From a virus (taxonomy: Duplodnaviria; Heunggongvirae; Uroviricota; Caudoviricetes): 23,114 nt of DNA. The position numbers and the translations under genes were made by a program. The notes under the pieces were generated by a model. It worked only from the letters and a program-made list of their open reading frames with translations, was not told where the DNA came from and did no database searches. Location: IMG/VR virus record IMGVR_UViG_3300028832_000101, positions 113,380 through 136,493 of that record, one strand, 5' to 3'. Shown one piece after another: positions 1 through 22,051 of the stretch (position 1 is its first letter; each line of letters opens with the position of its first letter).

Positions 1-1014
1 AGATTTTTCAGTTTCAGATAAACCTTGACTAGCAACAGTACTAACTGCTTTAAAGTTTCCAACATTACTTAAACCAACATCTGATTTAGTTAATGCATCT
101 CCTATAACAACATGTCCAGATGAATCTTTTCCTACTTTAACTGCGGCAGCCGCTACAGCATCTACAGTAGGATGTGTATAAACAGTAGTTTCATTTCCAT
201 TAATTTTAATTTTTCCATTAGTTGAACTTGATTCAACTTTTGTTGCATCTGCCCTAGCATGAGCAGTTTGACTATGATCATAAGCTATTTTACCACGGTC
301 TCCACGGTAAGCTGTAGTATTTGTTTCTCCTAATGATAATGTTTCACTAATAACTATAAATGAAGTCCCACCCCATCTATAAGTTTTATCACTTGGTAAA
401 TCTACATAAATTTTTCCTGCTTCTCCAGGGATTTCTGTAGTATGAGTTTCTTCTTCGTAGAATTTATTATTATAATAATATCCTTCAATAACATCGTCAA
501 CATAACTTGGTAATTGTGAAGTTGGTACCTTACCAAATGAATCTAGTTCAGCAACTCCGCTATTTGCACCTTTATCGCTAGTAGCAATAGCTCCAACATC
601 TGCTGCAGTTAAACTAGATTTATAAGCTAAAGAACCTAGACCATGTACAGCAACTTCCGCTGAAGTTCCATTAGTATTTACACTAATAGTTCCATTAGTT
701 GCACCTTCTGATACTCCACGAACTCCTTTATTACTAATTACATCATTAGTAATATCAATCCCAGCTCCGGCTGTATATGAAGCTCCCGCATCAATAGTAA
801 ATGTACCTGTTGTTCCATCTGCTCTAGTAAAAGTTACAGTACTTCCGGATACAGAGAAACTAACAACAGAATCTCCAGATACTAATATTCTTTGGGATGA
901 ACTAATATCAAAATAAAGTTTTTTAGTGTCAGTGACTAATATTAATTGCCCTTCTTTAATCGATAAGGAAGATAACCTTGCATTGGTTGTTTTGACTGGT
1001 TTAAAAAGTGCCAT
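1..1014 (-). CDS. Tail fibre protein (partial, runs off the left edge; missing from the ORF track)
   Basis: ATG at 1014 preceded by AGGAGG; open for 338 codons to the edge (MALFKPVKTTNARLSSLSIKEGQLILVTDTKKLYFD...). Contains GVAELDSFGKVPTSQLPSYVDDVIEG...GKIYVDLPSDKTYRWGG...SLGETNTTAYRGDRGKIAYDHSQ, a block I recognise from phage tail fibres. Confidence 0.8.
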   Translation of the reverse strand, partial: MALFKPVKTTNARLSSLSIKEGQLILVTDTKKLYFDISSSQRILVSGDSVVSFSVSGSTVTFTRADGTTGTFTIDAGASYTAGAGIDITNDVISNKGVRGVSEGATNGTISVNTNGTSAEVAVHGLGSLAYKSSLTAADVGAIATSDKGANSGVAELDSFGKVPTSQLPSYVDDVIEGYYYNNKFYEEETHTTEIPGEAGKIYVDLPSDKTYRWGGTSFIVISETLSLGETNTTAYRGDRGKIAYDHSQTAHARADATKVESSSTNGKIKINGNETTVYTHPTVDAVAAAAVKVGKDSSGHVVIGDALTKSDVGLSNVGNFKAVSTVASQGLSETEKS

Positions 1015-1029
1015 ATATAATTCCTCCTT

Positions 1030-1080
1030 CTTCTAAATCTATATTAAAATCGTCCATTTTATATTATCTATTTTAGCCCA
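1030..1080 (-). promoter_or_regulatory. Putative phage late promoter motif, copy 1
   Basis: TGGGCT-N18-TGGAC-N10-TAGATTTAGAAG; aligns without gaps to 8292..8342 (35/51 identical by hand count). Lies between a terminator and an RBS. Confidence 0.5.
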
Positions 1081-1115
1081 AATAAAAAAATAGGTAGTCA
1101 CTTAACTACCTATTT
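1081..1115 (-). terminator. Intrinsic terminator after the 330-aa gene
   Basis: Perfect 11-bp stem 1088-1098/1105-1115, 6-nt loop, followed on the minus strand by a U-rich tract. Confidence 0.85.
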
Positions 1116-1132
1116 ATATTTTATTTAAACTC

Positions 1133-2125
1133 TTAAGATAAAGTTTCCCATTCAAGTAAATGTTCTGCGTAAGCTCTACCACCATATACTGTAATATTAT
1201 TATAAGTATCGCTTGAAGTACCTAATACATTTGCAGCAGCACCAGCTGGATCAAAATCACTTGCACTTGCATAAGCAGCTGAATCTAATCCATGAACTGC
1301 AACATCAGTACCATCAACAGAAATTGTACCATTTGTAGAACCTTCAGTAATGTCTGCGGCTTGTAATGCGCTATCAGCTTTACCTAAACTAGTATTAACT
1401 CCAGTACTTAATTCAGTTGTTCCAATTGAACCTGCAACAATAGTAGCACTAATAACATTACTACTATCAATAGCTAATTGAACTTGAGTAGCATTTTGTT
1501 GAGCAGTATATACATCAACTAAGTCTTTTGCAGCAATATAAATTGTATCACTTGCTGCATTAGCAATAATTAATTTAATATATTTACCAGCATCTGCGGC
1601 TGTAGCTGTTCCACCTTGGCCTTTAATTTTTTCAGTTACATCTGTTGCACCATCATATAATTTACCATTATCATATGTAATATCAACTACAGAACCTTCT
1701 TCTACTACCATATCTTTAGGAATATCAATATTTCCAATAGTAGTTTGACTACCTGAAGCACCTTGTTTAACTTGATATCTCTTAGAATAAACATCTCCAG
1801 CTCCACCAGATATTTCAGTAATTGAAACTGTATAATCAGTTTGTGCAGGAACATTAACATAAAGACCTTCTTCTCCAGCTCCTGTTTCTACACTTAAGCA
1901 GTTTCCTGTTTTAGCAGAAACTTGAACTGCAACTTCATTATGGTCTGTTACAGTAATCGAATCATCCCCTGCAATAACATCGGTTAAATAAGGAGATAAA
2001 TCTTCATTAGATAGCTCGATGCCTTTTAAGAAGAATTGATTAGTGTCTGTTAAATAGTAGAAATTATCTGCTTTATTTGTAATAGCATCATATTGTGCTT
2101 TAGTACATTTTATAAATTTAATCAT
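1133..2125 (-). CDS. Virion structural / fibre-associated protein, 330 aa
   Basis: Intact ORF with RBS (GAAAGGAAGA) and TAA stop. Rich in G/T/A/S. Shares EGxTNGTISV...VAVHGLxSxAY with the fibre at 1..1014. Confidence 0.7.
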   Translation of the reverse strand: MIKFIKCTKAQYDAITNKADNFYYLTDTNQFFLKGIELSNEDLSPYLTDVIAGDDSITVTDHNEVAVQVSAKTGNCLSVETGAGEEGLYVNVPAQTDYTVSITEISGGAGDVYSKRYQVKQGASGSQTTIGNIDIPKDMVVEEGSVVDITYDNGKLYDGATDVTEKIKGQGGTATAADAGKYIKLIIANAASDTIYIAAKDLVDVYTAQQNATQVQLAIDSSNVISATIVAGSIGTTELSTGVNTSLGKADSALQAADITEGSTNGTISVDGTDVAVHGLDSAAYASASDFDPAGAAANVLGTSSDTYNNITVYGGRAYAEHLLEWETLS

Positions 2126-2144
2126 ATTTTTCTTCCTTTCTTAA

Positions 2145-2591
2145 TTAAATACTTTGATCTCCCATATCTTCTCAATTTAATTCTGTTCCCCCAACAGTAA
2201 GATAGTCTTGGAGATCATCGTTCCAACGATAAAAGTCTCTGTCTTTAACATAAATAGTGTTATCGACTCCCTCTTCAGGTAGACCTTCATCTGCAAAGAC
2301 TACCAATGGGTCTTCTCCTGTAAGTTGATGTCATTCATTATTAAAATAACTTCAAAATACACTTTCTTGTTTTGTATAATAGAAACCTTCAATAGGCGAA
2401 ATCATGGCTTTACGTACTTCATCATTTAACAATATCATGATTTGCGCATATAATTGTCTTTGACTATGTACATCTAGAAAAATTTGTCTAGTATCTTGAA
2501 CAAAGAGTAATTGACCATCTTTAATTGGGATACTATTTATTTTTCCAGAATTTGTAGCAATAAATTTCATAGAAGGATTTACTGTTGCCAT
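2145..2591 (-). CDS. Fibre-cluster protein, 148 aa under code 4 (3 in-frame TGA)
   Basis: ATG 2591 with an RBS-like purine tract. Reading TGA at 2352, 2331 and 2172 as Trp gives ...ESVFWSYFNNEWHQLTGEDPLVVFADEGLPEEGVDNTIYVKDRDFYRWNDDLQDYLTVGGTELNWEDMGDQSI ending at TAA 2145-2147, just before the next RBS. N-terminus resembles that of the 1..1014 fibre. Confidence 0.85.
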
Positions 2592-2605
2592 CTTCTTCAC
2601 CCTTC

Positions 2606-2956
2606 CTATTCAATTATATATAAAACAAGACTTCCTGTCATTTCAGTAATAATTTCTTGTTCCATTTCATATTTATCTTGTTCTGTAAAATAATCTATTC
2701 CTTTTACGGGGATAGGAATATAACCAGCATCTATTTCAGTGTGGTCAGACATTTTACAGAATAAGTGTCTACTCTCTTGGTCTAATTTGACATCGACAAT
2801 AGACACTCCATCTGCAGGAGTAGGAAAATGTATATCTACGGAATTCCCATCATTAGTAATAATTGTAAGGGTAGTTCCATCAACAATCATATCCGCAATA
2901 CCAGAAACTGCGGAAGTTGCTATTTTCTTACATAACGCATATGTAATTATATCCAT
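2606..2956 (-). CDS. Hypothetical structural/accessory protein, 116 aa
   Basis: AGGAGG RBS, TAG stop. N-terminus MDIITYAL is identical to that of the 443-aa gene. Confidence 0.75.
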   Translation of the reverse strand: MDIITYALCKKIATSAVSGIADMIVDGTTLTIITNDGNSVDIHFPTPADGVSIVDVKLDQESRHLFCKMSDHTEIDAGYIPIPVKGIDYFTEQDKYEMEQEIITEMTGSLVLYIIE

Positions 2957-2983
2957 ATATATTTCCTCCTCAATTATTTTTTA

Positions 2984-3784
2984 TTATTTTGTATATGTAA
3001 CCCACACATTATAAGTATAAATACCTGCATTGGCACTTTCCATAAATAAATTTGCATTATAAGTTGTGCCAGATTTTAATAAATAAACTGCGGCAGTAGT
3101 ATCAAATACTCCAGCATTTGCAGTTACATTCATGCAAGTGTATGGAACTGGACAAGTCCAGCTTTCACTAGGAGTAACAATATGTCCACCTTGAGCAATA
3201 ATATTAGAACATTTAGAAGCTAAAGGAATATCTTGTCTTACTTTTGAAGTAAGAGTTGTTGTTCCAGTAGCATGATATCCATAAACACCATTTCCGAAAT
3301 AAATTTCTTCATTTTCAGGCCATGTGTTTGGGAAATTAATATCATAGCATCCAGGTATTGTTATTGCACTATTTTTAGCATCTGTTTCTTTCGTATATTG
3401 AATAATTGCTAAATCATAAGTTCCTGGTTGTAAGAATTTTAATTCTATACTAGAACCATTAACAGTTCCGCTAGCAGGGCAAAAATCTTTATCAGATTTT
3501 AATGTAACAGAGATTATTTCATCTAAGCCATTAATATATGTATTTAAACCAGCTGTTAAATATTTTTCTCCTTGCCATTCACCAGTAATACTAGTTAGTA
3601 CAACTTTTTGATATAATGGTTTACCATTAATCCAAACTCCGATTATTTTTTCATCTTCTGTGTAAAAATCACTCACATTAGTTTTTAATGCTAAATTCGC
3701 ACCTAAATAAGGAGCAATTTTTTCTGAATATAATGTTTTTATATCTCCCTTAGTAACTAAGGTATTATCATTTTGTATAGCCAT
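2984..3784 (-). CDS. Putative receptor-binding/fibre accessory protein with two ...YTK-ending domains, 266 aa
   Basis: AGGAGG RBS, TAA stop. YTEDEKIIGVWINGKPLYQK motif is shared with the neighbouring gene. Confidence 0.65.
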   Translation of the reverse strand: MAIQNDNTLVTKGDIKTLYSEKIAPYLGANLALKTNVSDFYTEDEKIIGVWINGKPLYQKVVLTSITGEWQGEKYLTAGLNTYINGLDEIISVTLKSDKDFCPASGTVNGSSIELKFLQPGTYDLAIIQYTKETDAKNSAITIPGCYDINFPNTWPENEEIYFGNGVYGYHATGTTTLTSKVRQDIPLASKCSNIIAQGGHIVTPSESWTCPVPYTCMNVTANAGVFDTTAAVYLLKSGTTYNANLFMESANAGIYTYNVWVTYTK

Positions 3785-3801
3785 TCTAATTCCTCCTTAT
3801 T

Positions 3802-4641
3802 TTAATTTTCTAATTTTGTATATTGAATAGTTAAATAGAAACTATTTCTTTCTTGATCTGCTTGTAATAATCTTAATTTGCCTTTTGCAGTATAAGGAAT
3901 TGCATAAGAACTAGCATCTAAATAATAAGATGGAGTACCATATCCTTCTCCATAATATCTAGCTCCTCTTATATCAATTACTTTATCACAATTATTTGGT
4001 AAATCTCCAATAATGATATCAGACTCAGCTGATGCTGGTACTGTAAAGTCATAAGTTTTTTGATAAACAGGTTTTCCATCAATCCATCTACCTATAACTT
4101 GTTCTTCAGTTGAATAATTTAAACCATTTCCCATTAATACAGGAGTAGGTAATCCAACTTTTACAATATCATTAATAGAATCTGCAGATAAACCAATTCC
4201 TGAAATAACTGTTTTTTCACTTTCTTCATCATCTACAACTTTTAATCCTGTAAATTGTACAACAGGTTCTTGTACAAATGAAGTCCCAGCGCCATTTTGA
4301 ATTGAATGTCCTGGAGTAACAGTCTTCCATTCTACGTCTTGGTCTGCACTACTTTTCTTTACAAGAGCTTGTCCTGCAGTTCCTCCTATTGGAAATTGTG
4401 CATCTTGAGCTCCTGCTCCTAATTCTTCCCAGTTTGAGATAACAGTTGGATCGTTGCCAATTAAATGATAGACTTTATTTTCATTTTGAACTGAAACTAT
4501 CATTCCTTTATAGAAATATGGGAATGAATTTGCATCAGTTAATTCAGTCATAGATTTAACTAACATTCTTGCGTCTAGAGGAGCAGCAGCATTATTTTCG
4601 ATATTACTACTTAAAGTAAATGTACCTTTTTGTCTTGCCAT
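3802..4641 (-). CDS. Fibre/accessory structural protein, 279 aa
   Basis: AGGAGG RBS. N-terminal RQKG..PLDAR domain, GGTAGQALVKKSSADQDVEW fibre-type motif, C-terminal YSTEEQVIGRWIDGKPVYQK...QYTK domain. Confidence 0.7.
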   Translation of the reverse strand: MARQKGTFTLSSNIENNAAAPLDARMLVKSMTELTDANSFPYFYKGMIVSVQNENKVYHLIGNDPTVISNWEELGAGAQDAQFPIGGTAGQALVKKSSADQDVEWKTVTPGHSIQNGAGTSFVQEPVVQFTGLKVVDDEESEKTVISGIGLSADSINDIVKVGLPTPVLMGNGLNYSTEEQVIGRWIDGKPVYQKTYDFTVPASAESDIIIGDLPNNCDKVIDIRGARYYGEGYGTPSYYLDASSYAIPYTAKGKLRLLQADQERNSFYLTIQYTKLEN

Positions 4642-4656
4642 AATCTATTCCTCCTT

Positions 4657-6717
4657 TTAATTCCAAGTAATTTGTATTTTTCTACTACCAGCGCTATAAC
4701 CACGATTATCTGTATATCTGTTATAATTTACTGAAGTATTAGCAGCATTTTTATGTGTTGTAATTGTTTTTGTAAATTCGTTAGAACAATCTTCATATTT
4801 TCCTGATAATTCATTATAAGCTTTAATTGAAGTAATTGTCCAATCTGCAGGGATATCAAATTGTTCTGGGTTTAAAACTGTTTGAGTTGGGAATTCAAAA
4901 GTATAAACTCCTGTCGTTTTACTAACTAAATTTAATTTAGCTATAGTAGTAATATTTCCAGTATTAGCCCAAATTGCATTTACGAATTCATAATTTATAG
5001 TATTAGAATCTACAGAACCTGCAGCAAGTGGTTTATCATAATTATTTCCTTCACTATCCTTAGGTTGTTCTCCAGATGCATAATTAACAGTTGCGGTAAA
5101 TGATTTAGGACCTGAACCAATAATAGTTTGAGTCCAAGAATTTCCCGATTGAGCAGTTCCGCTATTTAATTTATAACCTGCAGCTACACCAGAACGATGT
5201 CCTGAAGTTCCATAAGTTGGATCAATAGATCCTCTATCAAATGCACAAGTAAATGTAACTGATAAAGAACCACCATCTTCAATAATATTATTTGAAGGAT
5301 TTGCAGTTAATTTAGCACTTGGATCTGTAAATGTTGGATAAAGAACTGGATCTAAAATTGCTCTAAATAAAGTTTCAAAAGAAGTTCCTGCTACGAAGAT
5401 ATCTCCGCGTTTAACTCCACCTACATCTTTAGATGCTTTTAAATCTGCAACAAGTTCTCCGCCTTCATCTTTACTTCCAGTTATTGTCATTGTAGTAACA
5501 ATTAATTCTTTATTTGAATTATTAATTGCAGTTACTTTACCAATAGTTCCTTCTGCATCATAAATTAAAGTTTCATTTAATACAATTTTATTAATATCAA
5601 TTCCTGCTACACTATTGATTGCAATAGTAGTAGTTTCATTTATAGTAGTATTTAATAATTCAGAAGTAATATATGTTCCATCTGATTTTTCTCCTACTAT
5701 AGTTGTAGTTGTTACAATTAGGTTTCCGCCTGAATGATTAGTAACAACACCCATTGTACCAGCGGCGTCATAAATTAAAGTTTCTCCAATTACGATATCC
5801 GCAGGTGTTAAATCTATTACTTCATCTTCAGCAATAGTAGTTGTTCCATCTATTGTTGTATTTAAAGTATTAGTTGTTTTATAAGTACCATCAGTTTTTT
5901 CTCCTGCAAAACTAATTGTAGTTGCAGTTAAAGTACCATTATTCTCTGCAGTAATAACTGCAATAGTACCAGCATTATCATAAACTAGAGTTTCATTTAA
6001 AACTAAATTAGCAATAGTTAATCCTGCAATAGAAGTATTTCCGCCAATAGTTGTAGATAATGTTGTATCTGTTTTATAAGTTCCATCTGATTTTGTATCA
6101 GTTGTAATTGTTTCAATAGTTAAAGAAGTTCCATTTTTTCCTGTAATAACACCAACTTTATCATTACCATCAAATACAAAAGTCTTACCTAGAACAATGT
6201 CATCTGCTGTTGCGGCAATGGCATTATTGTCTGATCTTTTTAAATTTGAAATAGTAATTGTTGTTGTTCCACTTGCATTTAAATCTGCAGTAGATTTCCA
6301 AGAATAAGTACTTCTATCTGGAGTTCCTAAAGCAACCCAGTCTAAATTATTATAATAATAATTTGTTTGTTCTGCAGCAACATAATACATGTCTCCTTCT
6401 TGAATTCCTGTTTTAGGTAATTTAGACATGTCTGCAACTACACCTTTATAAATTAATGCTCCTTCAATTGAGCCAGTAGTAACAGCTTTCCAATTTGAAA
6501 GATTACTATAATCATCAGCTGTTAAAATATATAAAGTTCCTTCTGAAATAACATAAACTTGCATACCTTTATAGATAAAGGCTAGTCCGTCTGAAACCCA
6601 AGACTTTGAGTCTGTTAAATCAGCTAAAGTTGGAACTGTATATCTAGCATCTAAAGGTAAAGCAGTTTTTACTTCAAAGTTAGCACTAACGTTCATTGTA
6701 CCTTTTTGTCTTGACAT
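4657..6717 (-). CDS. Fibre/accessory structural protein with internal tandem repeats, 686 aa
   Basis: AGGAGG RBS. PLDAR N-domain, four Thr-rich repeats, and a C-terminal ~250-aa domain paralogous to the 443-aa gene. Confidence 0.75.
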   Translation of the reverse strand: MSRQKGTMNVSANFEVKTALPLDARYTVPTLADLTDSKSWVSDGLAFIYKGMQVYVISEGTLYILTADDYSNLSNWKAVTTGSIEGALIYKGVVADMSKLPKTGIQEGDMYYVAAEQTNYYYNNLDWVALGTPDRSTYSWKSTADLNASGTTTITISNLKRSDNNAIAATADDIVLGKTFVFDGNDKVGVITGKNGTSLTIETITTDTKSDGTYKTDTTLSTTIGGNTSIAGLTIANLVLNETLVYDNAGTIAVITAENNGTLTATTISFAGEKTDGTYKTTNTLNTTIDGTTTIAEDEVIDLTPADIVIGETLIYDAAGTMGVVTNHSGGNLIVTTTTIVGEKSDGTYITSELLNTTINETTTIAINSVAGIDINKIVLNETLIYDAEGTIGKVTAINNSNKELIVTTMTITGSKDEGGELVADLKASKDVGGVKRGDIFVAGTSFETLFRAILDPVLYPTFTDPSAKLTANPSNNIIEDGGSLSVTFTCAFDRGSIDPTYGTSGHRSGVAAGYKLNSGTAQSGNSWTQTIIGSGPKSFTATVNYASGEQPKDSEGNNYDKPLAAGSVDSNTINYEFVNAIWANTGNITTIAKLNLVSKTTGVYTFEFPTQTVLNPEQFDIPADWTITSIKAYNELSGKYEDCSNEFTKTITTHKNAANTSVNYNRYTDNRGYSAGSRKIQITWN
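5470..6315 (-). repeat. Protein-level tandem repeats of about 65-76 aa (three clear, one degenerate)
   Basis: Units begin DGTY at aa 211, 276 and 346, with a consensus like DGTYxTxxxLxTTIxxxTxI...xVLNETLxYDxxGTxxxxT...LxxTTxxxxGEK. A degenerate unit spans aa 135-210. Confidence 0.85.
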
Positions 6718-6730
6718 ATATTATTCCTCC

Positions 6731-8062
6731 TTAATTGAATTGAATTCTAACCTTTCTATCTCCAGCAGCACAAGCTCTGTTATCAGTATATCTTACGTAG
6801 TTAACAGTTTCTCCGCCTGCATTTTGATGTGTAGTACTAGATGTTGTAAATTCACTAGCACAATTTTCCCATTGATTATTTATTGTATTTAACATTTCAA
6901 TAGCAGTAATATTCCAATCACTTGGAACTTCAAATATTTCAGGATGTTCAATAGATTGAGCTGGGAACTCAAATACATAACTTCCAGAACCTTTACTAAT
7001 TAAATTTAATTTAGCAACATTTGAAATATCTGCTGTGTTTGCATATAATGCATTTACAAATTCATAATAAATTTGATTTGTTGTTAAAGAACCTGCAGCT
7101 AATGGTGTTTCATAATTGCCGCCTTCATCATCTAAAGGTTGTTCACCTTGAGCATAATAAACAGTAGCATAGAAAGGACCTTTATTAGTGTCACTTACTG
7201 TTCTAGTAAATGTATTTTCTGCTTGTTCATTTCCTCCATTTAATTTATATCCTGTTGCAGCACCTGCTCTGTAACCAGATGTTCCATATGCTGGATTAAT
7301 AGAGCCACGATCAAAAGTAGCAGTGAAAGTTGCGTTAATAGTTTGACCACATTCAGCTAACTTATCTCCTGTTCCTTCTAAAGTTGCGCTAGGATTAGTT
7401 AAAGTAGGATAATTTGTTTTTAATAGCATATTGATTACAATTTCTTCTAATGATGTGCCTTTTGGGATTACTGTTCCAACTACATATTTTCCTTGCTCAC
7501 ATTTAACAGTTATATCTCTACTAAGTGGGATATTTGGTAAAGAACGATAATCTGCATCAGCAGAACTCCATGCTTTAAATTCATTTGTATCTTTAATAGC
7601 ATATAGAGTATTTTCTTGTCCTATCGCAGGTAATTCATTTTCACTTGCAACTTGCTTAAATGATTCAACATTTGCGTCCATGACAGTTTTAACAGTAACT
7701 TTTGTACTTTGACTTGAAATAATTAAACCTTGTATTGCATTTATACCAATAACTTCTGAGCCTTCTGAATAAGCAACAGTTGGAGCAATTACTTCAACTA
7801 AGTCTGTTTTGTTAATATCAATAGTTTGTCCTAATGTAGTAGGTAAACTAGTAGATGTTGTATATACACCAGATCTACCTGCTGTACCCACAGCAATATA
7901 GTTTTCAGTTGATTCGTCCCAATAATAAGTTTGACCTGTATCTTTTGTAAGATATAGAGCGCCAATACCGCCCTTTTCAGGAAGGTCATCATAAGAATTT
8001 ACTTGCGTCAATCTGTTTCGATTTGAATAGCTTTTGCTAAGTGCGTAAGTAATTATATCCAT
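6731..8062 (-). CDS. Fibre/accessory structural protein, 443 aa
   Basis: GAGGTG RBS. Two short LPxxG..LYxxKDT..W motifs; C-terminal domain (FDRGSIxPxYGTSG...GEQPxDxEGxNY...YEFVNA...RYTDNR) paralogous to the 686-aa gene. Confidence 0.75.
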   Translation of the reverse strand: MDIITYALSKSYSNRNRLTQVNSYDDLPEKGGIGALYLTKDTGQTYYWDESTENYIAVGTAGRSGVYTTSTSLPTTLGQTIDINKTDLVEVIAPTVAYSEGSEVIGINAIQGLIISSQSTKVTVKTVMDANVESFKQVASENELPAIGQENTLYAIKDTNEFKAWSSADADYRSLPNIPLSRDITVKCEQGKYVVGTVIPKGTSLEEIVINMLLKTNYPTLTNPSATLEGTGDKLAECGQTINATFTATFDRGSINPAYGTSGYRAGAATGYKLNGGNEQAENTFTRTVSDTNKGPFYATVYYAQGEQPLDDEGGNYETPLAAGSLTTNQIYYEFVNALYANTADISNVAKLNLISKGSGSYVFEFPAQSIEHPEIFEVPSDWNITAIEMLNTINNQWENCASEFTTSSTTHQNAGGETVNYVRYTDNRACAAGDRKVRIQFN

Positions 8063-8087
8063 ATATTCACCCTCTTATCTTATAAAA

Positions 8088-8279
8088 TTATTGTTTTACC
8101 CATTCTTTGTTAGAGTTCAACATATACACATCAGCAGTCTCAATTACATAAACAACACTACCTGTACAAATATCTTTATAACTTGGGTCATCAAGTACAT
8201 AAGGTAATTCGTCAAGAGTGTCAATCATAATTTCAAAGTAATTATAATCTTGTCTACCACCTTGTCTTATTGTATACAT
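8088..8279 (-). CDS. Small phage protein, 63 aa
   Basis: AGGAGG RBS, TAA stop. DTLDELP...GSVVYVIETADVYMLNSNKEW resembles small tail-associated proteins of Bacillota phages (recognition only). Confidence 0.75.
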   Translation of the reverse strand: MYTIRQGGRQDYNYFEIMIDTLDELPYVLDDPSYKDICTGSVVYVIETADVYMLNSNKEWVKQ

Positions 8280-8291
8280 ATTTTATTCCTC

Positions 8292-8342
8292 CTTCTAAAT
8301 CTATGTAAATTTTATCCAAAATAAATTGACTTATTTCGGCCA
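8292..8342 (-). promoter_or_regulatory. Putative phage late promoter motif, copy 2
   Basis: TGGCCG-N18-TGGAT-N10-TAGATTTAGAAG with the same spacing as copy 1; begins right after the terminator U-tract. Confidence 0.5.
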
Positions 8343-8375
8343 CAAAAAAAAAGAACTAGAATTATTCTAGTTCTT
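8343..8375 (-). terminator. Intrinsic terminator overlapping the holin 3' end
   Basis: Perfect 11-bp stem 8351-8361/8365-8375. The 3-nt loop is the holin TAA stop. Followed by a run of U. Confidence 0.8.
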
Positions 8376-8808
8376 CTCCTTCATCGATATCTTCTGAATC
8401 TTCAATAAATCCTGTTATTAAAGCATTTGCAACTTTAACTTGCATTAATTCAATAATACCTTCTAAAGCTTTTTTGCCTTGAGTTACGATAACAGTGATA
8501 ACGATTCCTAATACTGCAGTAGCACTTAATACATCAAGTGTTTCTCCAGAAATTAATTCAATTCCACATTGAGCGGAAATCATATCATTAATGAATGGTA
8601 ACATAGTAAATGCTACAGAAATAAATACTGCGCAAAGATAGAATACTAAAGATTTTCCTAAACCTTTTAATAAAATACTCCAACTAAATGATTGTCCTTC
8701 ACTCATGTTTTTAATAATTCCGCAAATTGTATTCACAAATACTAAGATTGCTAAGACAATTCCTAACCAACCCATAATTTGTAAAATTGACATAATTTTA
8801 TCGTACAT
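8362..8808 (-). CDS. Holin (phage_holin_4-like), 148 aa
   Basis: Three hydrophobic segments, FSWSILLKGLGK motif, strongly acidic C-terminal tail, directly downstream of the endolysin. Confidence 0.8.
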   Translation of the reverse strand: MYDKIMSILQIMGWLGIVLAILVFVNTICGIIKNMSEGQSFSWSILLKGLGKSLVFYLCAVFISVAFTMLPFINDMISAQCGIELISGETLDVLSATAVLGIVITVIVTQGKKALEGIIELMQVKVANALITGFIEDSEDIDEGEELE

Positions 8809-8822
8809 GTTCTTCTCTCCTT

Positions 8823-9554
8823 TTAATTTTTCTTTTTAACTTGTGCACCGCTACTATCTTCTACACATAGCCAAGTATTTTTAGTTTTACCCCAAACATT
8901 TCCTTTGCTATCTGTTGCGAATTCTCTAATAGTAACTGTTACACCAATTTTATATTTAGCATATCCCTTGTTGTCTGAAATACATTTAGGTTTTGCTTCA
9001 GCTGATAATCTACTATATTTTACTTTATTAGTAGTTAATACTTCAGGAGTACATCTTATATATTTATGTTGTAATGTAATATAGTCTCCTGGTTCCCAAG
9101 TAATTGGAGTAGGTGCTGGAAGTCCAACCAATTCTTTTCTTCCGTAAGCATAATCAGTTGGGTTAATAGATGAACTATTTCCACCTTTATCAATTTGGAA
9201 ATGTAAATGTTTTCCTGTCGAATGACCTGTATTACCCATTTCCGCAAGATATTGACCTTTCTTTACATATTCCCCTTCTTTTACGACAATACTGCCGCTT
9301 TTTAAATGATAATATGCAGATTGATAAGTCTTATGTTGAATTCTAACCTTACACATAGTACCATTATTTTCTCCCTTATTTACCACTTTTACAACTTTTC
9401 CATCTGCGGTTGCTACTATTTGAGTACCTCCAACTAAATCAATACCATAATGATGGTCAACTACCCATTTACCATTATATTTGTATTTTCTAGTTTTATT
9501 AGGTCCTGTGTACGCAGATGTAGTTTTTAACTTGTTAGTTACAACTGGTTGCAT
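8823..9554 (-). CDS. Endolysin: M23 family zinc endopeptidase plus putative SH3-like wall-binding domain, 243 aa
   Basis: HYGID (HxxxD) and HLH (HxH) zinc ligands, YYHL motif, LPAPTP linker. Start reassigned to ATG 9554, which follows AGGAGG, rather than 9575. Confidence 0.9.
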   Translation of the reverse strand: MQPVVTNKLKTTSAYTGPNKTRKYKYNGKWVVDHHYGIDLVGGTQIVATADGKVVKVVNKGENNGTMCKVRIQHKTYQSAYYHLKSGSIVVKEGEYVKKGQYLAEMGNTGHSTGKHLHFQIDKGGNSSSINPTDYAYGRKELVGLPAPTPITWEPGDYITLQHKYIRCTPEVLTTNKVKYSRLSAEAKPKCISDNKGYAKYKIGVTVTIREFATDSKGNVWGKTKNTWLCVEDSSGAQVKKKN

Positions 9555-9555
9555 A

Positions 9556-9774
9556 TTAGGCCTCCTTCTTTTCATCTTTCTTTTCAGATTCTACTTCCTC
9601 AGCAGGGATATCTGCTTGAGGAGTAGATTCTGATTGTTCTCTTTGAAGTTGTTGCTCATAAAGCATCGCAACTTCATTGAATATATCTTTTAAAACATAA
9701 TAAATTGCATCAATAGTTAAATTACTATTGTTAATATCTTCCGCAATTTTTTGTTTAAAGTCATTTAATATCAT
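9556..9774 (-). CDS. Hypothetical protein, 72 aa
   Basis: Fills the gap between the tail tip gene and endolysin. GAAAGAAGG RBS; its TAA abuts the endolysin ATG (TAAtATG). Confidence 0.75.
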   Translation of the reverse strand: MILNDFKQKIAEDINNSNLTIDAIYYVLKDIFNEVAMLYEQQLQREQSESTPQADIPAEEVESEKKDEKKEA

Positions 9775-9799
9775 TTTAAAACCTTCTTTCTTTTTTATG

Positions 9800-12700
9800 T
9801 TAATTTAATTTTATATATCCATACACTTCTGCTCAACCCGTAAGAATTCCAGTATCTTGTCCTATAGTTCTTGCTGGATGACTTTCATCTACTTGTCGAG
9901 TGGCTCAAGAATCTGAAGATTTTATTGAAATATTAAAAGTTCTCGGTTGATTTGTAGCAGCTCCAAATATATTAGCAAAATCTTCAGTTTCTTGAATTTC
10001 CATTCCATCATCAGTAAAAGTTATATTATCATTTGTAATTGGATGTTGTCCCCAGTCTGGAACATTCCCACCGATAAATGCATAACTATTATAAAAACCA
10101 TAACCTGTTTGTCCTAAATTACTAACATGATAAACTTTTAAATGCTTACATTTACCTTTAAAATCTTGCTTAGGTTCGTCATCCCCCCAAATCATACAAG
10201 TATGTTGTAATATAATTTTAGCTTTAGTTACAGTAAAATTCGCGGGAATTCTAATACTAAAATTTATTCAACTTTGTCTAACCTCAAAAGGTCCAAAATT
10301 TGAATCACAATTTCAACCAACTCATCCTGCAGTATCTCCATCATATCCATTTGTCCAAGCTCATCCTCATATCTCTCCTGGAAAAGTTAGATTCGTAAGG
10401 ACTCCTTTGCTTCCATCAATTACTCCTCCATTAATAGTTGCCAACTTACATGTCAATTCTCCATTAGCGTTAACTGAGAAATTTTCATTACCCCATCTAA
10501 TTTCTGGAGTGTTTAAATCTATTTTCATTCCACTTTGGCTTTCAACAGAATAATTACCACTAACAATTGTTGCTGTATCTTGAGTAGGATCTAATATAAT
10601 TTTACCTTGGCTAGCTTTACCAAACTCTGCCTTTCCTGTCTCTGCATCTAAGAAGATAGTTCTTTCTCCATTGTTAAATGCAAATAACCCTTGTTCAGTT
10701 TTTCTAGTTTCATTTTCTTTTACTTTTCCCATTAATAAACCGGTAAAAGTATTAGTTACAGGATCCTTCGTTCCGGCTCCAATTTGAGGAGATAAAATTG
10801 TTCCTTTTCCATTATCTAATGAAATATGATTTCCATCTCATCCATTAATTGAAGCGATTCCAAATTTATTTAAGAAGAAATGAATTGGTATATGAAGTTT
10901 TCCAACTTCTGTTAAATTAGCAGTTAAAATTTTGACTTCTACTGCATTAGTTACATTTTCTCCATCATAATTATCATCAGGAACAAAAAATTTTGAATTT
11001 CCTGTTAAATTATCTGTTGTTAAATGTAAATCATCAACCCAATCAGTTCCATTAAATATTTTTCCTCTTATACTTCAATTATATGAAACTTTATATTTAT
11101 TATTAATTTCAGTAATATCTTCTCATATATTGTTTATTTTTTGTTCTACTTGAATTTTAAAAGGATTAGTATTACTATATTGAGGTTGTTTTCCTGCACT
11201 ATCATATTCTACATATCTAAAACCAGAACCTTTTAATAATTTAATTTTATAATCATTATTTTGAGTTCCAACTATAACTGGTAAAGTACAATAATAAATT
11301 TTATCTTTATAAGTAACAGTCGCTTTAACTATATCCGCGCCATCCTCAACATAATCATTATAACTAAATAATCCATTATCATAAATAATAGAACTAGAAT
11401 CATATAAAACATTAGCATATCTATTTTTTAAAATACTCCATTCAATATTTACATTTGATGTAACACTCGAATTAGTTCCTTCCCATTTCATTTCTCCATC
11501 TTCTCAAATTTGAACTCTAAACCATTTTCCATCATTAATAGGTGTAAAATTTGGTGTTCCATTCATTATCATTGGATATTCAGTAAATTCTTCCCTAGTA
11601 TTAGGAATAATTTTACAAATAATACTAGTTCCATTTGTTCCAGGTTCTCCATCTTTTGAAAAAGTAAATGATGTATTTGCATTTAAATTTAATGTTTTAT
11701 ATTTTACATTTAAATTAATTGTATTATTTCTAATCTTAGTTATATCATATTTATCTTCAATAGAAAAAGGTAATTCTAACTCATTTAAACTTTGACCCTC
11801 TTCTATCTTTATTAAACTATTATTTTTTGGAATTGTCCAGTTAATTTCGCATTGTTCTAGAATATCTGTTCCTAATAATCTACCATTACTATCTATAATA
11901 TTGAAAGATAAAGGTAATATTTCAATTGGATTTTCTAAACTTCTATTTGTAGGTGAGATACCCATATTATCATAACTAAAAGTTTGCATACCATTATTTA
12001 TTACTAAAAAATATTCTCCTTCAATAGACAAATTATTAGTAATAAGAATTGATGCTGTTCCTATTGGTAAATTATTAATATCATATGCAGTACATTTAAA
12101 AACACCAAAATCTATAATTTTAGATAAATCCACATTAATAATTTGATTACCTTCAACTCTTTGGATATTTTTATAACTGTCTAAAATAGCTTTTTGTGTA
12201 TCTAACTCTTCTTGAGTTGCATTAGGCATTAATACCCCTGCATCAATTAAAGCCAATAGTCTAGTATATTCTGCTTTTGCGGCATTATATATATTATTAT
12301 CTTCAGTTGTTTCTGCTAGTAAAGTCACTTTCTCGTTATTATCATAATAACTCCATTTATAACTAATCTCTGAGGCAGGAACATCTCCAGTAATTCCTAC
12401 TAAACATGTTAATGTAGGGGAACCATTATCATAATAAAATTCAGTCCCACTATCACTTTCAATGGCAATTTCATAATTAGCTCCATAATTATAAATTTCA
12501 CAATAACCTTCTGCTATTATTTCACCATTTCTAACTCCGACACATTTAATTAGCATTCTTAAACTTTTTACACTATATTTATCAATTAAATTAAAATTAA
12601 CTCCAGGAATATAATTCTTTTTTCCAGTTGTAATATCTGTAATAGTATAATCATTAATACATTCTCAACCATTTCCGCCATATATAGTATAATTAACTGA

Positions 12701-13699
12701 ACTAGTATCAATTGAATTATTTTCCTTAAACCAATAATATTGAATTCCTTTAGTAACTTCATTATTTTTATAAGTTAATTTAGCATTCATTTTTATTGTG
12801 CTTGTACTTGAATCATTCTTATTGAAATATCCTTTTCCTTCTTTTATAATGGCCATTGCATAGTTATCGCGATCTAAATTTTCTTTTTTATCTGCGGCAC
12901 TTAATTCAAAAGCGCGAACAAAAATGTCATTAGGATGATTACTCTCTGTTTTTGGAAAGTGCTCTTCAAATATATAAATTCTTTTAACACTTATAAAATT
13001 ATCACTATTAATTTTAAATAAACCATATTGTTTAGCTCAATCAGTTAATTTATAAGGATTCCCTTTCATATTGTCAACATCTATAATATAATCTTGAGTA
13101 ACTGCCTTCCCTGAGGCATTATCTTTAAAATCTATTTCAAATATAATTCCATAATTTCCTTCAGTTTGTTGCGCATTATCTAATTTAGTTTTAAATTCTG
13201 CTGCGCAGATTAAATATTCACTATCTTTTATATTTTGTTGTAAAGATATAGTATCTAAATTAATAATATTAATAGATGCATCTCTATCATATAAAACAGT
13301 TGCTTGATCTGCTTTATATGAACATAAACCAAATTCATCATCAGAAAATAAAGTATTTCCGCCAATAATTCGATATACTTCTTCGTCATTTAAAACTACA
13401 TCATATTCAGTTTTTTCTTTTTGAACTGCATTAATAATAATCTTATCTTGATCGAAATCCCCATTAGGCACTAGAATATTTACAAGAACCCCTTCAGGAT
13501 AAAAAGCATTTAAATCAGTAGCATACGCTTCTATTTCGCTATCTTGATATTTTAATTTATATTTTCCTAAATCTGCATCTGTTCTTTCAATAACAACAGC
13601 TTGAATAGTTTTATTAAATTGAGCATTTGAAACTTTATCTGAAACGACCATTTCAATTGCATCAAGTAAATTGTTTTCATAATCATTACTGTTCATCAA
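9800..13699 (-). CDS. Tail tip / central tail fibre protein, 1299 aa under code 4 (13 in-frame TGA)
   Basis: Six track ORFs share one frame, and all gaps are free of TAA/TAG by hand translation. TGA at 13037, 12665, 11504, 11123, 11075, 10838, 10367, 10361, 10322, 10313, 10268, 9905 and 9833. Beta-rich, lies directly after the tape measure gene. Start is TTG 13699 or ATG 13696. The specific function is inferred. Confidence 0.85.
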
Positions 13700-13734
13700 A
13701 AAAACATCTCCTTTTCTCTCTAAATTTATTCCTT

Positions 13735-13780
13735 ATTATATTTTTAAAAATTAAATAAAAATATTATTTATTTTGGTCCA
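13735..13780 (-). promoter_or_regulatory. Putative late promoter motif, copy 3
   Basis: TGGACCAAAATAAATAAT right after the terminator U-tract; TATAAT at 13740-13735 with no recognisable -35 at 17 bp. Confidence 0.45.
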
Positions 13781-13817
13781 AAATAAAAAAGAGATAGTCT
13801 TTTATTAACTATCTCTT
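13781..13817 (-). terminator. Intrinsic terminator overlapping the tape measure 3' end
   Basis: Perfect 10-bp stem 13789-13798/13808-13817. The loop contains tandem TAA TAA stops. A U-rich tract follows. Confidence 0.8.
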
Positions 13818-16800
13818 CTTTCTCCAATTCTTTGGCTAGCTGAATTTACTAAGTTGTTTAATGCGGCTTCTATTTCCGCAGAGTTTCTTACATTAGGGAA
13901 TTGAGCATCAATATGAACAATTTGTTCAAGAGCTCCATCATTTGGAGTACTATTGATACTAGCTGCGCTAGCTCCTGCTAATCTAGCAAGAACATTACTT
14001 CCTAACATTTCTGTTAAGTTTCTCATTATAGCAACAGTATTAAGCATATTTGCAGTATCACTTGCATTTAATACTAATTCTTTTTGATGTAGCATTGCAA
14101 GTCTACCACTATTATCCCAAGTACCAGTATAACCACCAGTATCATATCCAGTAATTTGATCTTGTCTAATCCATCCTAAAGCTCCACCACTAGTTGTTGC
14201 AATATGAATTGGATATGGTCTACCATTTTTTACAATAGTAATCTTAACTTGAGTACCAGCTTTCTTACTACCGCTTCCACCTCCACCATAGGAATCAGCA
14301 TAATATCTTCCGCCTTGGTAAGTAACTACTTCTCCAGGTTCAGGAGAACCGTTTCCGCCTCCGCCAGAACCTCCTCCAGTATTTATATCTGTGCTTGGTG
14401 CGGCAGGTTGTGGAGCAGGAGTAGGAGTTCCACTTGCACTAGAAGTTGTTTGAGTTTGATTTTTATATTCTTCAGCTTGTTTTTCTTCTGAAGCATGCTT
14501 GTAATTATAAGCCTCTTCCGCAATTTGTTTAGCAACTTCTAATTCCCTTTCTCTCAATTTTAAATTTTCTTTTAATTGAGAATATATATCTTTAACTGCT
14601 TGTAATTCAGTTCCATAAGTATTTATAATTTCTTCATTTACACCAATTAATTTTTGTGCTTCTGTAATAGCCTCATCTTCACCATTAATAATAGTATCAA
14701 AAGTTCCATCTGCTACTCTATTAAGGTCTTCAATTTTTTCATTATAATCTTCTTCTGCGGCTATCATCTTATGATATGTTTCATCAAGAACTGCAGCAAT
14801 TCCGCCTTCGCCAATAACATAGTCCATAGATTCTTTCATACCATTTGCATATGTTGGAATATATTCTTCTAATATAATTTGTTTAGCTCTATCGGATGCA
14901 TTCATTAATGAGTCAATTGCTAATTCATTAGATCTTGATATTTCTTCAAAAGCTGAATTAGTTAAATTTTGATTTGCAACAGAATAATCTGTCATAACTT
15001 GTTGTAATAACTCATTATATTGTTGAATAATTAATTGACGTTCTTCTAATTGTTTAGCTGGATCCGCGATATCAACTGTAGCTTTTAATTTTTCTTCTAA
15101 CTCAGTTAAACCATCACTTCAATCTTTTGCTAAACTATTAAATCTTTCTTTATCAAAATTATATAAACTATTATATAAATCATCTACTTTATTTTGAGCC
15201 TCTGTTATAGCATCATTATCTGCTATATATTGATATGTGTAATTACCTTGACTATCTCTTCTTAATCTCATTTGAGATTTATTTTGTTGAGCTTCTTCAA
15301 GAGCAATTCTAGCTAACTCAATTTCATAAAGTTTATTGGCTCTATCAACATCATATTGAGTAAGTCTATCTCTTTCGCGGAGACCAGTAAGTTGTTCATC
15401 CATAACCTTTTTCAATTTTTGTTGTTTACCAATATTATCTGTTTTATTAATTGCATCTACATATTTCTTTTCTAACTCTCTTATTGCATAAGTAGAATTA
15501 ATTGTATCTAAATATCTATTTGCATTTTTATTTATTAAATCTCATTGTTCATTTATATAACTTAAACCTAAGCCATTAGTAATAACTTCTTCCCATTCTT
15601 TATACATACCATTAACTAAATTATGTAATTCATCTTTAGTCGCTTCTATGGCCGCAGTACTAAGTTCTTTAACTTGAGTGATTGCCGCTTTTAATTTTTC
15701 AGTAGCATTTTCTCTTTCTTCTTCTGTAAGTTGTTCATTTTCAAGTCTTTCTCTCCAGAAGTTTTCTTCCATTTTAGCATATTCTAGTTGTTCTTTTAAT
15801 GCTTGTTGTTGTTTAGCATAATATATTTCTAAATCTTTATAAGCATCTTCCCCAAGTAATAATTGAGTTAATTTAATATCATGATTAATTAAATCTCTTA
15901 GATATTCATAATTTTCAATTTGTTTATCAAATTTTTCTTGAACCTCATCCATTTTATCTAATACATCTTGTAATGCATCATTTTCTAGGTCACGAAGCTC
16001 ATCAATTGAATTCATTATTTTATCTAATGCTTCTTGTAATTGATCTAAGCCTTTAGCTTCATTATTTCCGAAGATATTATCTTGACCACGTTTCATTTTT
16101 TCTAAATTATCTAAAGCTTCACGTAAATGTCTAGTTTCGGTTTGAATATCTCCATTTCCACTATTATTAAAGTAAGTATTAAAATCCTTTAATCTAGTAG
16201 AGATATTACCAAATATATCTTCATCTTTAAATCCCTTAATATTTTTCTTATACCATTCATTCCAATCTCTTGTTGCTTGATTCATATCAAGAGTAACTTC
16301 AATTTCTAAATTGAATTTTTGAATATTTAATTCAATTTGTTTATCAATTGCATCTTGAATAGATTGTTGTAAATCTGGAATAAAATCAGTAACTAATTCA
16401 TCATATCTATCAATATCTTTTTTAAATGCTTCAAAATCTTTTTCAGCTTTTTTAAGAGTATCTTCATATTTTTCTTGTTGTTCTTTAGACATTTTATTGT
16501 AATTGTCATATAAACTATTTACATAAGCCTCTTGCGCCTTAATTGCTTCTGCATAATTTGCAACAGTACCATCTGAATTAAAATATACTCCCTTATTAGA
16601 TAAATTATTTGCTAATTCTTTTTGTTCATCATTAGCAATTCTTAATTTTTCAGTATAATTACTAATTTGAATATTTAATTGATTTCATTGAGCATTTAAA
16701 TTATTAATTAAATTACTACCAACAAATTTTTCTTGTTGAGATTCTAATTTCTTTAAAGCATTATCTACTTTTGTTATTTGAGCATTGACTTTATGATATC

Positions 16801-19800: not shown

Positions 19801-22051
19801 GAGTTCCATCTTGAGTCTTTTGATATTGTTTAGCCGCTTCATTAAAGGCTTCAGATTTTTTACTTAAATCATCAATTTCTTCTTGACGTTCTTGAAATTT
19901 ATCATTTATTTCTTTGTTTATTGAATGAAGCTTTTCCTCATCAGCTAAATCTTTAATATATCCTTTTCTTTTCTCTTCTTCGACTCCCGCAACTTCTAAA
20001 GCTAAATCTATTTCTTGTTCTCTTGATTTTATTATATCTTCTCTATCCTTTGAAGAAGCAGAATTTAAATCAAGCATTAATTCATCAATAGCAGATTGCG
20101 CATCTGATAATTTTTCAGTTTCTCTTGTTGCTTGTTGTGATAATTGAACACTTCTTAGTTGTAAATTATTTATATTTCCTAAATATTCTTCATCTTCTTC
20201 TAACCAACCAGCTGTATTTTTTAAATTTGTTTCTCAATTTTCGGCTGCCCCAATCGATTCAGATAATTGTCCATATATTTGTTGTTGAGTTGCTAATTCT
20301 TCATAATCTTCTTTAGAAATATTTTGTCTAATTTGAAGTAAATCTAAAGAATATTTAGCTTCTGCTTGAACTCTTTCATCACTAGGGCTTTCGGCACCAT
20401 TTAATTCATAATCATTACGGATATTATTAGCAAGTTCTTGTTTAAATGCATCTGCATCTCTATTTTTGGTTTCAATATCAAAATTATTATTCATTCTTGC
20501 TGCGGCAGAACCTAATTGTTTACTAAATAAAGCAATTACATTTCCACCTAATATTCCAGTTAGATTATCTCCCAATCCAGTTAAATATGTATTAATACCT
20601 TTTAAAGCTCCGGTTAGCATATCTACGAAACCTTTAATTGATTTTTCATCTAAAAGTGTATCGTAAAATTTTTCAGCTTCAGTAGATAATTGTTGTAAAT
20701 GAGCTTCTAAGCTATCTAAATAAATTTCTTGTTGAGATTCTAATTTACCTGCAGATGTTTCCGCAGTAGTTAAATTAGTTTGGAATGTTTCCCAATTATC
20801 CATTAATGCAATTAATTGAGTATATTGTCTTGTACCGGCAACATTTTGTGCTAAAGCAACTTTTTGCGCATTATTTAATGTATTCCATGTTGCACCCATT
20901 TCATTCAAGATAGCATCCATTGTTTTTAATTCGCCATTACTATTTTTAATACTAATACCAACACTATTTAATGCTTCTGCATATTTACCTAATGTAGTAC
21001 CATCTTCTAAAGTTTCTCCTAATTCCAAATCTTGAATACGAGCAAATAATGTTTTAAATGCAGTACCTACAGTATCAGCACTTTGACGAGTCTCTGCAAC
21101 TACAGTAGCTAGTGCACTAGTAGCATATTCATAACTTAATCCTACTGTACCAGCAACTGCCGCGAATTTTTCTAGACCTTCAGAAATTTCTTCGGCACTT
21201 GAAGCTGTACTTGCTCCTAATGCAGTAATAACATCTGCATAATGTTCAAGTGATTTTGAGCCATCATCAAAATTATTTCAAATAGCAGTCATATATTCAG
21301 AAACTTCTTGAGTAGAAGTTCCTAATACATTTGCCATTTTTACAGTAATGTCAGTTCTATCTGTAACATCTTTACCTGTTAAACCTTGTTGATAGTAAAT
21401 TAAAGATGCTTTTGTATAATCTAAAGTAGAAGCACCTAATTCTTTTGCAGATTGATTTGCATATTTAGCAAATCTTTCCATTTGATCTGCAGTTTGACCA
21501 CTAACAATTCTAATATCATTTAAAGATGTATCTAAATTCTTTACATAACTATAGGCTTTTTCTAATGAACCTGTAAATGAATTAAATATACTTGAAGAAA
21601 TACCAAATCTAATAGTATTTGCAAAAGTTAATGCCATTTTATTTAATAATTCACTAGATTGTTTTAATTGAATATTTGTATTTAATACAGAACTAGCAAT
21701 ATTATTAAAAGCGGTTGTTCCGGCTGAACCAAGGTTATTTAATTGTGTTCTAAATTGTTGAATTCCGCCATAGGCTTGATTAATTTCTTTTTTGAAATTA
21801 GTTATATTTAATTGTCCACTTTTTAAATCCCAAGATTTACTTAAAACGCCAGAAAGTTTTTCAGCTTCTCTTGCAGCTTCTTGGAATCCTTTTTTTAAAT
21901 TAACTCCACCCATCCAGTTTTCGGATTCAAAAGATGATTTAATTTTTTGTGCGGACACAAGTAATTCTTCTAACTTTTGTCTAGACGCATCTAAATTCTT
22001 ATTATCAGTTTCAAACTTAAGACCTATGCGTAGTTCATTCTTTGTAACCAT
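13805..22051 (-). CDS. Tape measure protein (TP901-type N-terminal region), 2748 aa under code 4 (12 in-frame TGA)
   Basis: Ten track ORFs share one frame, and all gaps are free of TAA/TAG by hand translation. TGA at 21278, 20234, 19553, 19289, 18680, 18581, 18263, 18257, 17834, 16685, 15542 and 15119. Typical motifs: LDTSLNDIRIVSG, TALGASTASSAEEI, TVGTAFKTLFARI, LAQNVAGTRQ and C-terminal YDTGGYTG...LHQKELVLN. Long coiled-coil; AGGAGG RBS. Confidence 0.93.

Follow-up and report, generated by a model that had tools for sequence, protein, structure and literature searches.

Introduction

Why would nine adjacent genes of a phage that reads TGA as tryptophan contain no TGA at all? The question is raised by a block at 2606..9774 that codes for an endolysin, a holin-like protein and four fibre-cassette proteins among others. 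It lies in a 23,114-nucleotide stretch of the IMG/VR record IMGVR_UViG_3300028832_000101 (positions 113,380 to 136,493), which we call the window. This window takes up the final 23 kb of a 136,493-bp record (GC 29%) of a cattle-gut or rumen phage, and every gene in it is carried by the minus strand. The answer we favour, on balance, is that this island is two horizontally mobile modules lying side by side in a tight late operon, and that exchange and constraint together have kept them TGG-only. This refines a known phenomenon and requires no new mechanism.

The phage, G000 in what follows, is recoded from TGA to Trp and is of the kind described by Borges et al. (bioRxiv 10.1101/2021.08.26.457843), as judged from its code features and its tRNA(UCA), its relatives having been collected by capsid only. 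Under genetic code 4 the window holds open reading frames (ORFs) of 2748 aa (13805..22051) and 1299 aa (9800..13699), and code 11 breaks both into many pieces. TGA is aligned with TGG at conserved tryptophans across the orthologues of the tail-tip gene. ARAGORN places a tRNA-Trp(tca) at genome 42162..42257, beside a tRNA-Trp(cca). Among the early genes (plus strand, genome 50-74 kb), a single one of the 77 Trp codons is TGA. Pairs of the form x/y give the numbers of TGA and TGG codons throughout; the count for the whole genome is 138/322.

Relatives were found with the capsid protein (genome 6617..7648) as query, which gave 328 in IMG/VR. We examined five large ones whole (G001-G005) and the tail-tip neighbourhood of 17 more. 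All five are TGA-recoded, each more heavily than the window phage (179/169 to 309/219), which makes the latter the least recoded of the six. Scanning IMG/VR with one protein at a time, tail tip or lysin, returned no relatives, although alignment-based searches did find them, and phage records in INPHARED gave remote matches only (to Phass-1 along 8% of the tail tip, and to M23 domains of actinophages).

The TGA-free island

The initial annotation counted 0 TGA and 27 TGG in the nine genes of 2606..9774, against 13/11 in the tail-tip gene and 12/16 in the tape-measure gene, and a recount gene by gene gave identical numbers. The borders are sharp. A 151-aa gene 5 nt downstream has 3/1, and the tail-tip gene 25 nt upstream uses TGA for about half of its tryptophans. 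It was also claimed that the chance of such a block is 0.52 to the 27th power. This overstates the case because TGA use varies strongly from gene to gene among the late genes: a 592-aa gene has 14/2, a 1470-aa fibre gene 2/11, and the block from portal to capsid 0/16. The claim of non-randomness itself holds. When the order of the 51 late genes is shuffled, a TGA-free run holding 27 Trp codons arises with p = 0.003, and with p = 0.0002 when the shuffle is confined to the 35 genes of the tail half. A likelihood segmentation of the Trp codons splits the island off at a penalty of ln(n) but not at 1.5 ln(n). A model with codon bias as covariate, fitted on the other late genes, expects about 8 TGA in the island and gives P(0) = 6e-5. 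We conclude that the island is real and non-random, yet it is one among several TGA-poor late patches and not a unique hole. The holin-like gene (0/2), a 63-aa gene (0/1) and the two genes that have no Trp are too poor in tryptophan to be informative alone.

The island is not set apart by its composition. Its GC (0.30-0.33) and GC3 (0.08-0.21) are like those of its neighbours, not atypical as in a recent island. GC3, or a general bias between A and G at third positions, was considered as a cause and ruled out, since the TGA-rich late genes are slightly richer in G-ending NNR codons (0.078, against 0.058 in the island).

The endolysin across the clade

The endolysin of the window (250 aa, 8823..9575, minus strand, 0/4) has an M23 peptidase domain (Pfam Peptidase_M23, 5e-22) and an unassigned C-terminal domain, and it matches PHROG endolysin families. 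Because M23 domains occur in tape-measure proteins too, the assignment rests also on its position and on the membrane protein next to it. That protein (148 aa, 8362..8808, minus strand, 0/2) is holin-like by its features and position only, namely three hydrophobic stretches, an acidic C-terminal tail and its place after the lysin; it has no holin family match in Pfam or PHROGs. A 72-aa acidic protein (9556..9774, minus strand, 0/0), which has no Pfam or PHROG match, is the first gene of the cassette. The order of tail tip, 72-aa gene, lysin and holin is repeated in G001, G002 and G013-16; in G003 the 72-aa gene and the lysin are present but a holin homologue is missing, and G010 lacks the 72-aa gene but has lysin and holin. 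Homologues of the 72-aa protein stand directly before the lysin slot in G001, G002, G003, G008, G012, G013-16 and G027.

The lysins that occupy this slot are not orthologous. At least three catalytic types are represented, with M23 in the window and in G003, M23 with SH3 in G004, CHAP in G001, G010, G013-16 and G053, with another N-terminal domain in G002. The M23 lysin of the window is absent from its close relatives at an otherwise syntenic site. What the slot lysins share is their avoidance of TGA. The domain-verified lysins have 0/4 in the window, 0/4 in the rumen contig L023 (M23), 0/11 in G001 (CHAP), 0/8 in G002, 0/4 in G003 (M23), 0/7 in G004 (M23 and SH3), 0/7 in G010 (CHAP), 0/8 in G016 (CHAP) and 1/9 in G053 (CHAP), a total of 1/62 (1.6% TGA) in nine recoded lineages. 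A 516-aa gene that follows the 72-aa gene in G027 matches tail-fibre PHROGs and was dropped from this tally. The tail tips of the same phages have 95/80 (54% TGA; Fisher test of lysin against tail tip, p = 5e-16), and the holin homologues have 9/16 (36% TGA, 0 to 4 TGA each; lysin against holin, p = 3e-5, or p = 0.014 in the four CHAP genomes alone). The holins, which are inherited vertically, and the lysins have the same codon-bias index (0.132 and 0.137), which is the C-ending share of NNY codons (NNC/NNY). Among the late genes examined that have enough Trp, the endolysin is the most TGA-poor across the clade, the capsid gene excepted. The lysis pathway as a whole is not code-independent clade-wide.

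At conserved tryptophans of the tail-tip orthologues TGA and TGG flip almost at random; the pairs between G000 and G001 are 3 GG, 4 GA, 3 AG and 2 AA. The CHAP lysin orthologues differ at 47-59% of their 4-fold sites, yet only one TGA is found at a conserved Trp. They have also moved. The capsids of recoded G016 and of standard-code G051 (complete, 117 kb) are 43% identical and their lysins 83%; for G016 and G010 the figures are 81% for capsids and 78% for lysins, and for G051 and G053 they are 89% and 66%. These identities conflict, so lysins move among distant phages and across codes.

The initial annotation also offered, as one of two alternatives, that selection keeps the lysis and fibre genes free of TGA. 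This is supported for the endolysin across the clade and fails for the holin homologues and for fibres as a class. Its observation that the lysis genes run opposite to the reported enrichment of recoded codons in lysis genes is borne out by the window (lysin and holin-like gene alike) and by the lysins of the clade.

Two neighbouring genes may be mentioned here. The holin homologue of G027 (L260, about 9232..9636, minus strand) has 4 TGA and 0 TGG, the reverse of the holin-like gene of the window. Just downstream of the lysis cassette of G010, a 340-aa protein (L261:6457-7479, plus strand) has 0/7 and weak matches to Hint or intein-like domains, below the Pfam cut-offs.

The fibre cassette

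The second module is a 5.1-kb cassette of four genes, between a 63-aa gene (8088..8279, minus strand, 0/1) and a 116-aa gene (2606..2956, minus strand, 0/0). Its genes, all on the minus strand, are F443 (443 aa, 6731..8062, 0/4), a fibre protein with a weak PHROG minor-tail match; the fibre protein F686 (686 aa, 4657..6717, 0/8); F279 (279 aa, 3802..4641, 0/3); and F266 (266 aa, 2984..3784, 0/5). F443 and F686 share a C-terminal domain of about 265 aa, and F686 and F279 share an N-terminus. The 63-aa protein has homologues in G001 (1/0), G002 (0/1) and G011. In G001 and G002 the homologues of the 63-aa and 116-aa genes are adjacent to each other, and the fibre cassette is therefore an insertion. 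None of 41 clade relatives, of which 11 are at least 90% complete, has a gene of the F443 type. As to whether close relatives have the same boundary as the island, a question the initial annotation raised, the lysis slot is kept in them and the fibre cassette is absent.

The cassette is found elsewhere. The C-terminal domain of F443 is 46-52% identical in about 20 other IMG/VR contigs and a contig of a Succinivibrio metagenome-assembled genome, and 29-45% identical in some 20 further loci. A gene order recurs there, in which a gene with this C-terminal domain is followed by one with the F686/F279 N-terminus, an F279-like gene, an F266-like gene and sometimes a gene like that of the 116-aa protein. 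Homologues of F279 stand directly after the C-domain gene in the standard-code contigs L103-L139. F266 has full-length homologues (37-39%) in L112, which belongs to the standard-code record G048, and partial ones in L104, L106, L114 and L120. G048 carries the cassette and is a standard-code member of the wider clade, its capsid 65% identical to that of the window phage. The long ORFs of the cassette-bearing contigs have no internal TGA, the apparent TGAs being at gene ends. All this indicates that the cassette is drawn from a mostly standard-code pool.

Fibres as a class are not TGA-free, for the genes between tail tip and lysin in G013-G016, which are assigned to fibre by position only, are rich in TGA (6/4, 5/1 and similar). 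The first fibre is present in a sister lineage too, 60-68% identical and nearly saturated at its synonymous sites. Three proteins of the fibre cluster start at the first Met after the conserved Trp-165, as code-11 calling past an in-frame TGA would yield; a search for matching N-terminal fragments of these three found none. The starts are a hint that some sister fibres may carry TGA at Trp-165. The protein collection mixes gene-calling codes, so full-length matches in it are uninformative on TGA.

The gene starts of the cassette deserve a remark. Those of F443 and the 116-aa gene (8039..8062 and 2933..2956, minus strand) share about 24 nt and the first eight residues, and the first 45 or so codons of F686 and F279 are alike at about 65% nucleotide identity. 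To judge by these similarities, the shared starts appear to be conserved N-terminal adaptors, acting as joints at which the cassette recombines.

Weighing the explanations

Two of the candidate explanations are general. One is that TGA use is simply patchy genome-wide and that a run of this size is unremarkable. The patchiness is real: the heterogeneity among genes is strong, segmentation at the stricter penalty does not split off the island, and the window phage is the least recoded of the six. Yet both permutations speak against chance, and the slot is TGA-poor in every recoded relative examined. We regard chance as very improbable, and patchiness does not make the block unremarkable. The other explanation is codon cost. 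Highly expressed phage genes are under codon-usage selection, and TGA would be a poor codon, for which a single phage tRNA competes with release factor 2, and would be purged as protein demand rises; the genes of the island would simply be highly expressed. In each of the six phages, late genes with a higher NNC/NNY index do have a smaller fraction of TGA (likelihood-ratio tests, p between 4e-4 and 7e-11). For the window phage the TGA share is 85/169 below an index of 0.10, 17/60 at 0.10-0.18 and 1/31 from 0.18 upwards; none of the six capsid genes contains TGA; and the island has an index of 0.159 against 0.090 for the TGA-rich late genes. However, even with the covariate some eight TGA are still expected in the island, lysins and holins with the same index have 1.6% and 36% TGA, and the lysin of G001 has an index of 0.06 and still 0/11. 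Codon cost accounts for the TGA-free capsid and head genes and not for the island, so as the sole cause we think it improbable.

The remaining two explanations were both raised by the initial annotation. It proposed import of the block from a standard-code phage, recent enough that TGA had not yet been gained. This agrees with the contiguity of a 7.2-kb block with 0 TGA among 27 Trp codons, and with more distant homologues of lysin and fibres in standard-code contigs. But the 72-aa, holin, 63-aa and 116-aa genes are conserved in the clade, syntenic in recoded relatives, and so not island-like; the lysin and the fibre cassette alone are variable, with different distributions; a sister contig keeps the order at saturated synonymous divergence; and there is no compositional break. 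Import fits the four fibre genes. As one event for the whole block it is quite unlikely: the block does not appear to be one recent import, and recency is not demonstrable. The second proposal was adaptive code independence, in which the endolysin, and here the fibres too, can be translated regardless of a UGA suppressor, while recoding gates tail assembly and not lysis. Such independence could act as a fail-safe or let the proteins accumulate early. A cytoplasmic lysin waits for its holin, and the lysin of the window lacks a signal or membrane segment, so it could accumulate harmlessly until the holin fires. Lysins are TGA-free in the recoded lineages despite saturated synonymous divergence, and at the tryptophans conserved between the window and L023, to which we return below, 15 of 16 codons are TGG. 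Against this, homologues of the holin carry TGA, all four of the Trp codons in G027, and therefore the lysis pathway of the relatives is still dependent on suppression. The island is preceded in the same packed operon by 25 in-frame TGA, with a gap of 25 nt after the tail tip and no terminator, which makes it unlikely that its expression is independent of the code switch. The genes in fibre position in G013-16 are TGA-rich as well. We consider code independence unlikely, though not negligible.

Import fits the fibres and constraint fits the lysin; each is partly supported and neither covers the whole block as a single event. We believe the two modules are better considered separately. In one, the endolysin sits in a conserved slot between the 72-aa gene and the holin, where it would have been replaced repeatedly and exchanged with distant and standard-code phages. 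In the other, the fibre cassette would be foreign to the clade and would circulate mainly among standard-code phages. Both would arrive TGG-only and remain so. Why TGA fails to build up we infer: residence may be short before the next swap, purifying selection may act, or both, and the data do not apportion between them. The counts, the TGA-free lysins across the clade, the incongruence of lysin and capsid and the distribution of the fibre cassette are direct observations. We are somewhat inclined to see the pattern as a by-product of the exchange of modules across code boundaries, together with constraint, rather than as a lysis timer.

Several observations weigh against the exchange of two modules. 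No near-identical standard-code donor for either was found in IMG/VR, the JGI metagenomes or the GTDB genomes, where the best outside identities are 59% for the lysin (L024) and the 46-52% already given for the F443 domain. The GC3 and codon usage of the island match the genome. The rumen contig L023, the sister contig mentioned above, has the same order (72-aa gene, lysin at 84%, holin at 79%, 63-aa gene and F443 start at 68%; 48-84% overall), and 74 of 140 of its 4-fold sites differ from those of the window, near saturation for the base composition. Even so, 15 of the 16 codons at the eight Trp positions conserved between the two are TGG. Had both lineages been recoded all along, drift alone would not produce this, and it would take some purifying selection or repeated re-import. 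The gene upstream of the L023 cassette has 6 TGA and is unrelated to the C-terminus of the window's tail tip, so vertical descent of the cassette is not assured. Finally, in recoded G005 an M23 peptidase encoded at another place in the genome has 2/1. The L023 holin has TGA at Trp-43, where the window has TGG. ENA/Logan holds closer relatives, at the protein level only (lysins 60-84%, fibres 59-67%).

It is possible, and we offer it tentatively, that the code acts as a one-way filter on gene flow, so that swapped lysins and fibres are held in a 'common-denominator' code and the giant, vertically inherited tail genes drift to a private one. Only alleles free of recoded codons work in every recipient, and therefore the modules that are swapped most would stay in the shared code. 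If so, the TGA-free island is the footprint of this filter in a community that mixes standard, TGA-recoded and TAG-recoded relatives. From the interruptions in tail-tip homologues, one capsid-defined clade does seem to hold three code states: TGA-recoded, standard (G006, G007, G019, G020, G029, G034 and G036) and TAG-interrupted. The tail-tip homologues of G006, G007 and G019 are uninterrupted and those of G008, G013-16 and G027 are interrupted by TGA. Those of G037 and G040-G044 (L215, L220-L225) are broken by TAG only, up to 10 in one match.

Comparison with known systems

The window phage is like the Agate-type gut and rumen phages in its genome of more than 100 kb, its low GC and its own tRNA(UCA), in early replication genes in standard code with TGA in late genes, and in a clade with both standard-code and recoded members. 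It is unlike Agate-type lysis recoding in that its endolysin and the membrane protein of the cassette both lack TGA. Borges et al. proposed that recoding blocks premature lysis, and suggested that the block is amplified when recoded genes share a transcript; they tested gene families that prefer TGA, not ones that avoid it. The TGA-rich tail-tip gene upstream of the lysis cassette is as they describe, and the holin homologue of G027, not that of the window, resembles their 'strongly recoded membrane protein'. The lysis cassette itself is not enriched in the recoded stop as in their model; agreement with the model is confined to the upstream tail gene (13/11) and some of the holin homologues. 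Amplification of the block within one transcript could gate the cassette indirectly. In the published model recoding restrains lytic genes until the code switch, and here the lysing enzyme is among the most consistent avoiders of TGA in the late genes; in the window phage the same is true of the holin-like gene and of the fibres for host recognition. Since the lysin is TGA-free, any gating must come from upstream recoded genes or from holin homologues rather than the lysin itself.

The capsid and tail-tube-like genes avoid TGA and have the strongest C-ending NNY bias, which is like codon-usage selection on highly expressed genes in that TGA is disfavoured. The fibres and lysins are unlike it in being TGA-poorer than their codon bias predicts.

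Phage genomes are mosaic, and endolysin and tail-fibre cassettes are exchanged as modules. The non-orthologous lysins in one slot, the incongruence of lysin and capsid trees and a fibre cassette common to unrelated phages are all like this. Unlike in usual mosaicism, the exchange crosses a genetic-code boundary, and the code would filter what moves because TGA-bearing alleles cannot work in standard-code recipients. This is a concrete case of lysin exchange between phages of different codes, and it makes the idea that code divergence shapes gene mobility testable. There is a practical consequence as well. Standard-code gene callers leave lysins and fibres intact and shatter the tail genes, which biases catalogues of lysins and receptor-binding proteins.

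Operon structure and other observations

The operon runs from the tape measure through the tail tip, the 72-aa gene, endolysin, holin, 63-aa gene, four fibre genes, 116-aa gene, 151-aa gene and 330-aa gene to a likely terminator, with intergenic gaps of 5-82 nt from the tail tip through the 330-aa gene. The endolysin start overlaps the 72-aa gene by 20 nt, and the holin-like gene follows the lysin by 14 nt. The island is thus the middle of a tight operon whose first two genes hold the 25 TGA codons. The tape-measure protein (13805..22051, minus strand) matches PHROG tape-measure families (best 8.5e-66). The tail-tip protein (9800..13699, minus strand) is named by its position after the tape measure; it belongs to no PHROG family and has homologues in 36 of 39 relatives. 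At the 3' boundary of the island the 151-aa gene (2145..2600, minus strand) has homologues in G001-G003 with 1/3. Where the 330-aa gene gives way to the 1470-aa fibre gene, at 1088..1115 (minus strand), there is a terminator-like hairpin with a 12-bp stem and T tracts on both strands. Of the four such sites on the minus strand in 1..14500 this one is the strongest, the other three being weaker and inside coding sequence, and it likely ends the operon that contains the island. A scan for sigma-70 promoters was uninformative, with 81 sites against 83 in shuffles; the phage encodes its own sigma factor.

The genome has 24 tRNAs and a predicted tmRNA (ARAGORN; G000:C1:38829-39202, minus strand) within its tRNA array. 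In a phage with a reassigned stop codon, a tmRNA of its own may be relevant to the rescue of ribosomes at TGA.

Just before the window lies the 592-aa virion structural protein (G000:C1:108191-109969; L145:11191-12969, minus strand), which with 14/2 has the most extreme preference for TGA in the genome. Its homologues prefer TGA as well (8/1 in G001, 11/1 in G005). Outside the window, at G000:C1:1687-11276 (L143), the portal, the terminase and several small head genes have TGG where four or five relatives have TGA. The portal has 0/2 in the window phage and 1/1 in all five relatives, and the terminase has 1/4 against 5/0, 4/2, 3/2, 4/1 and 2/3.

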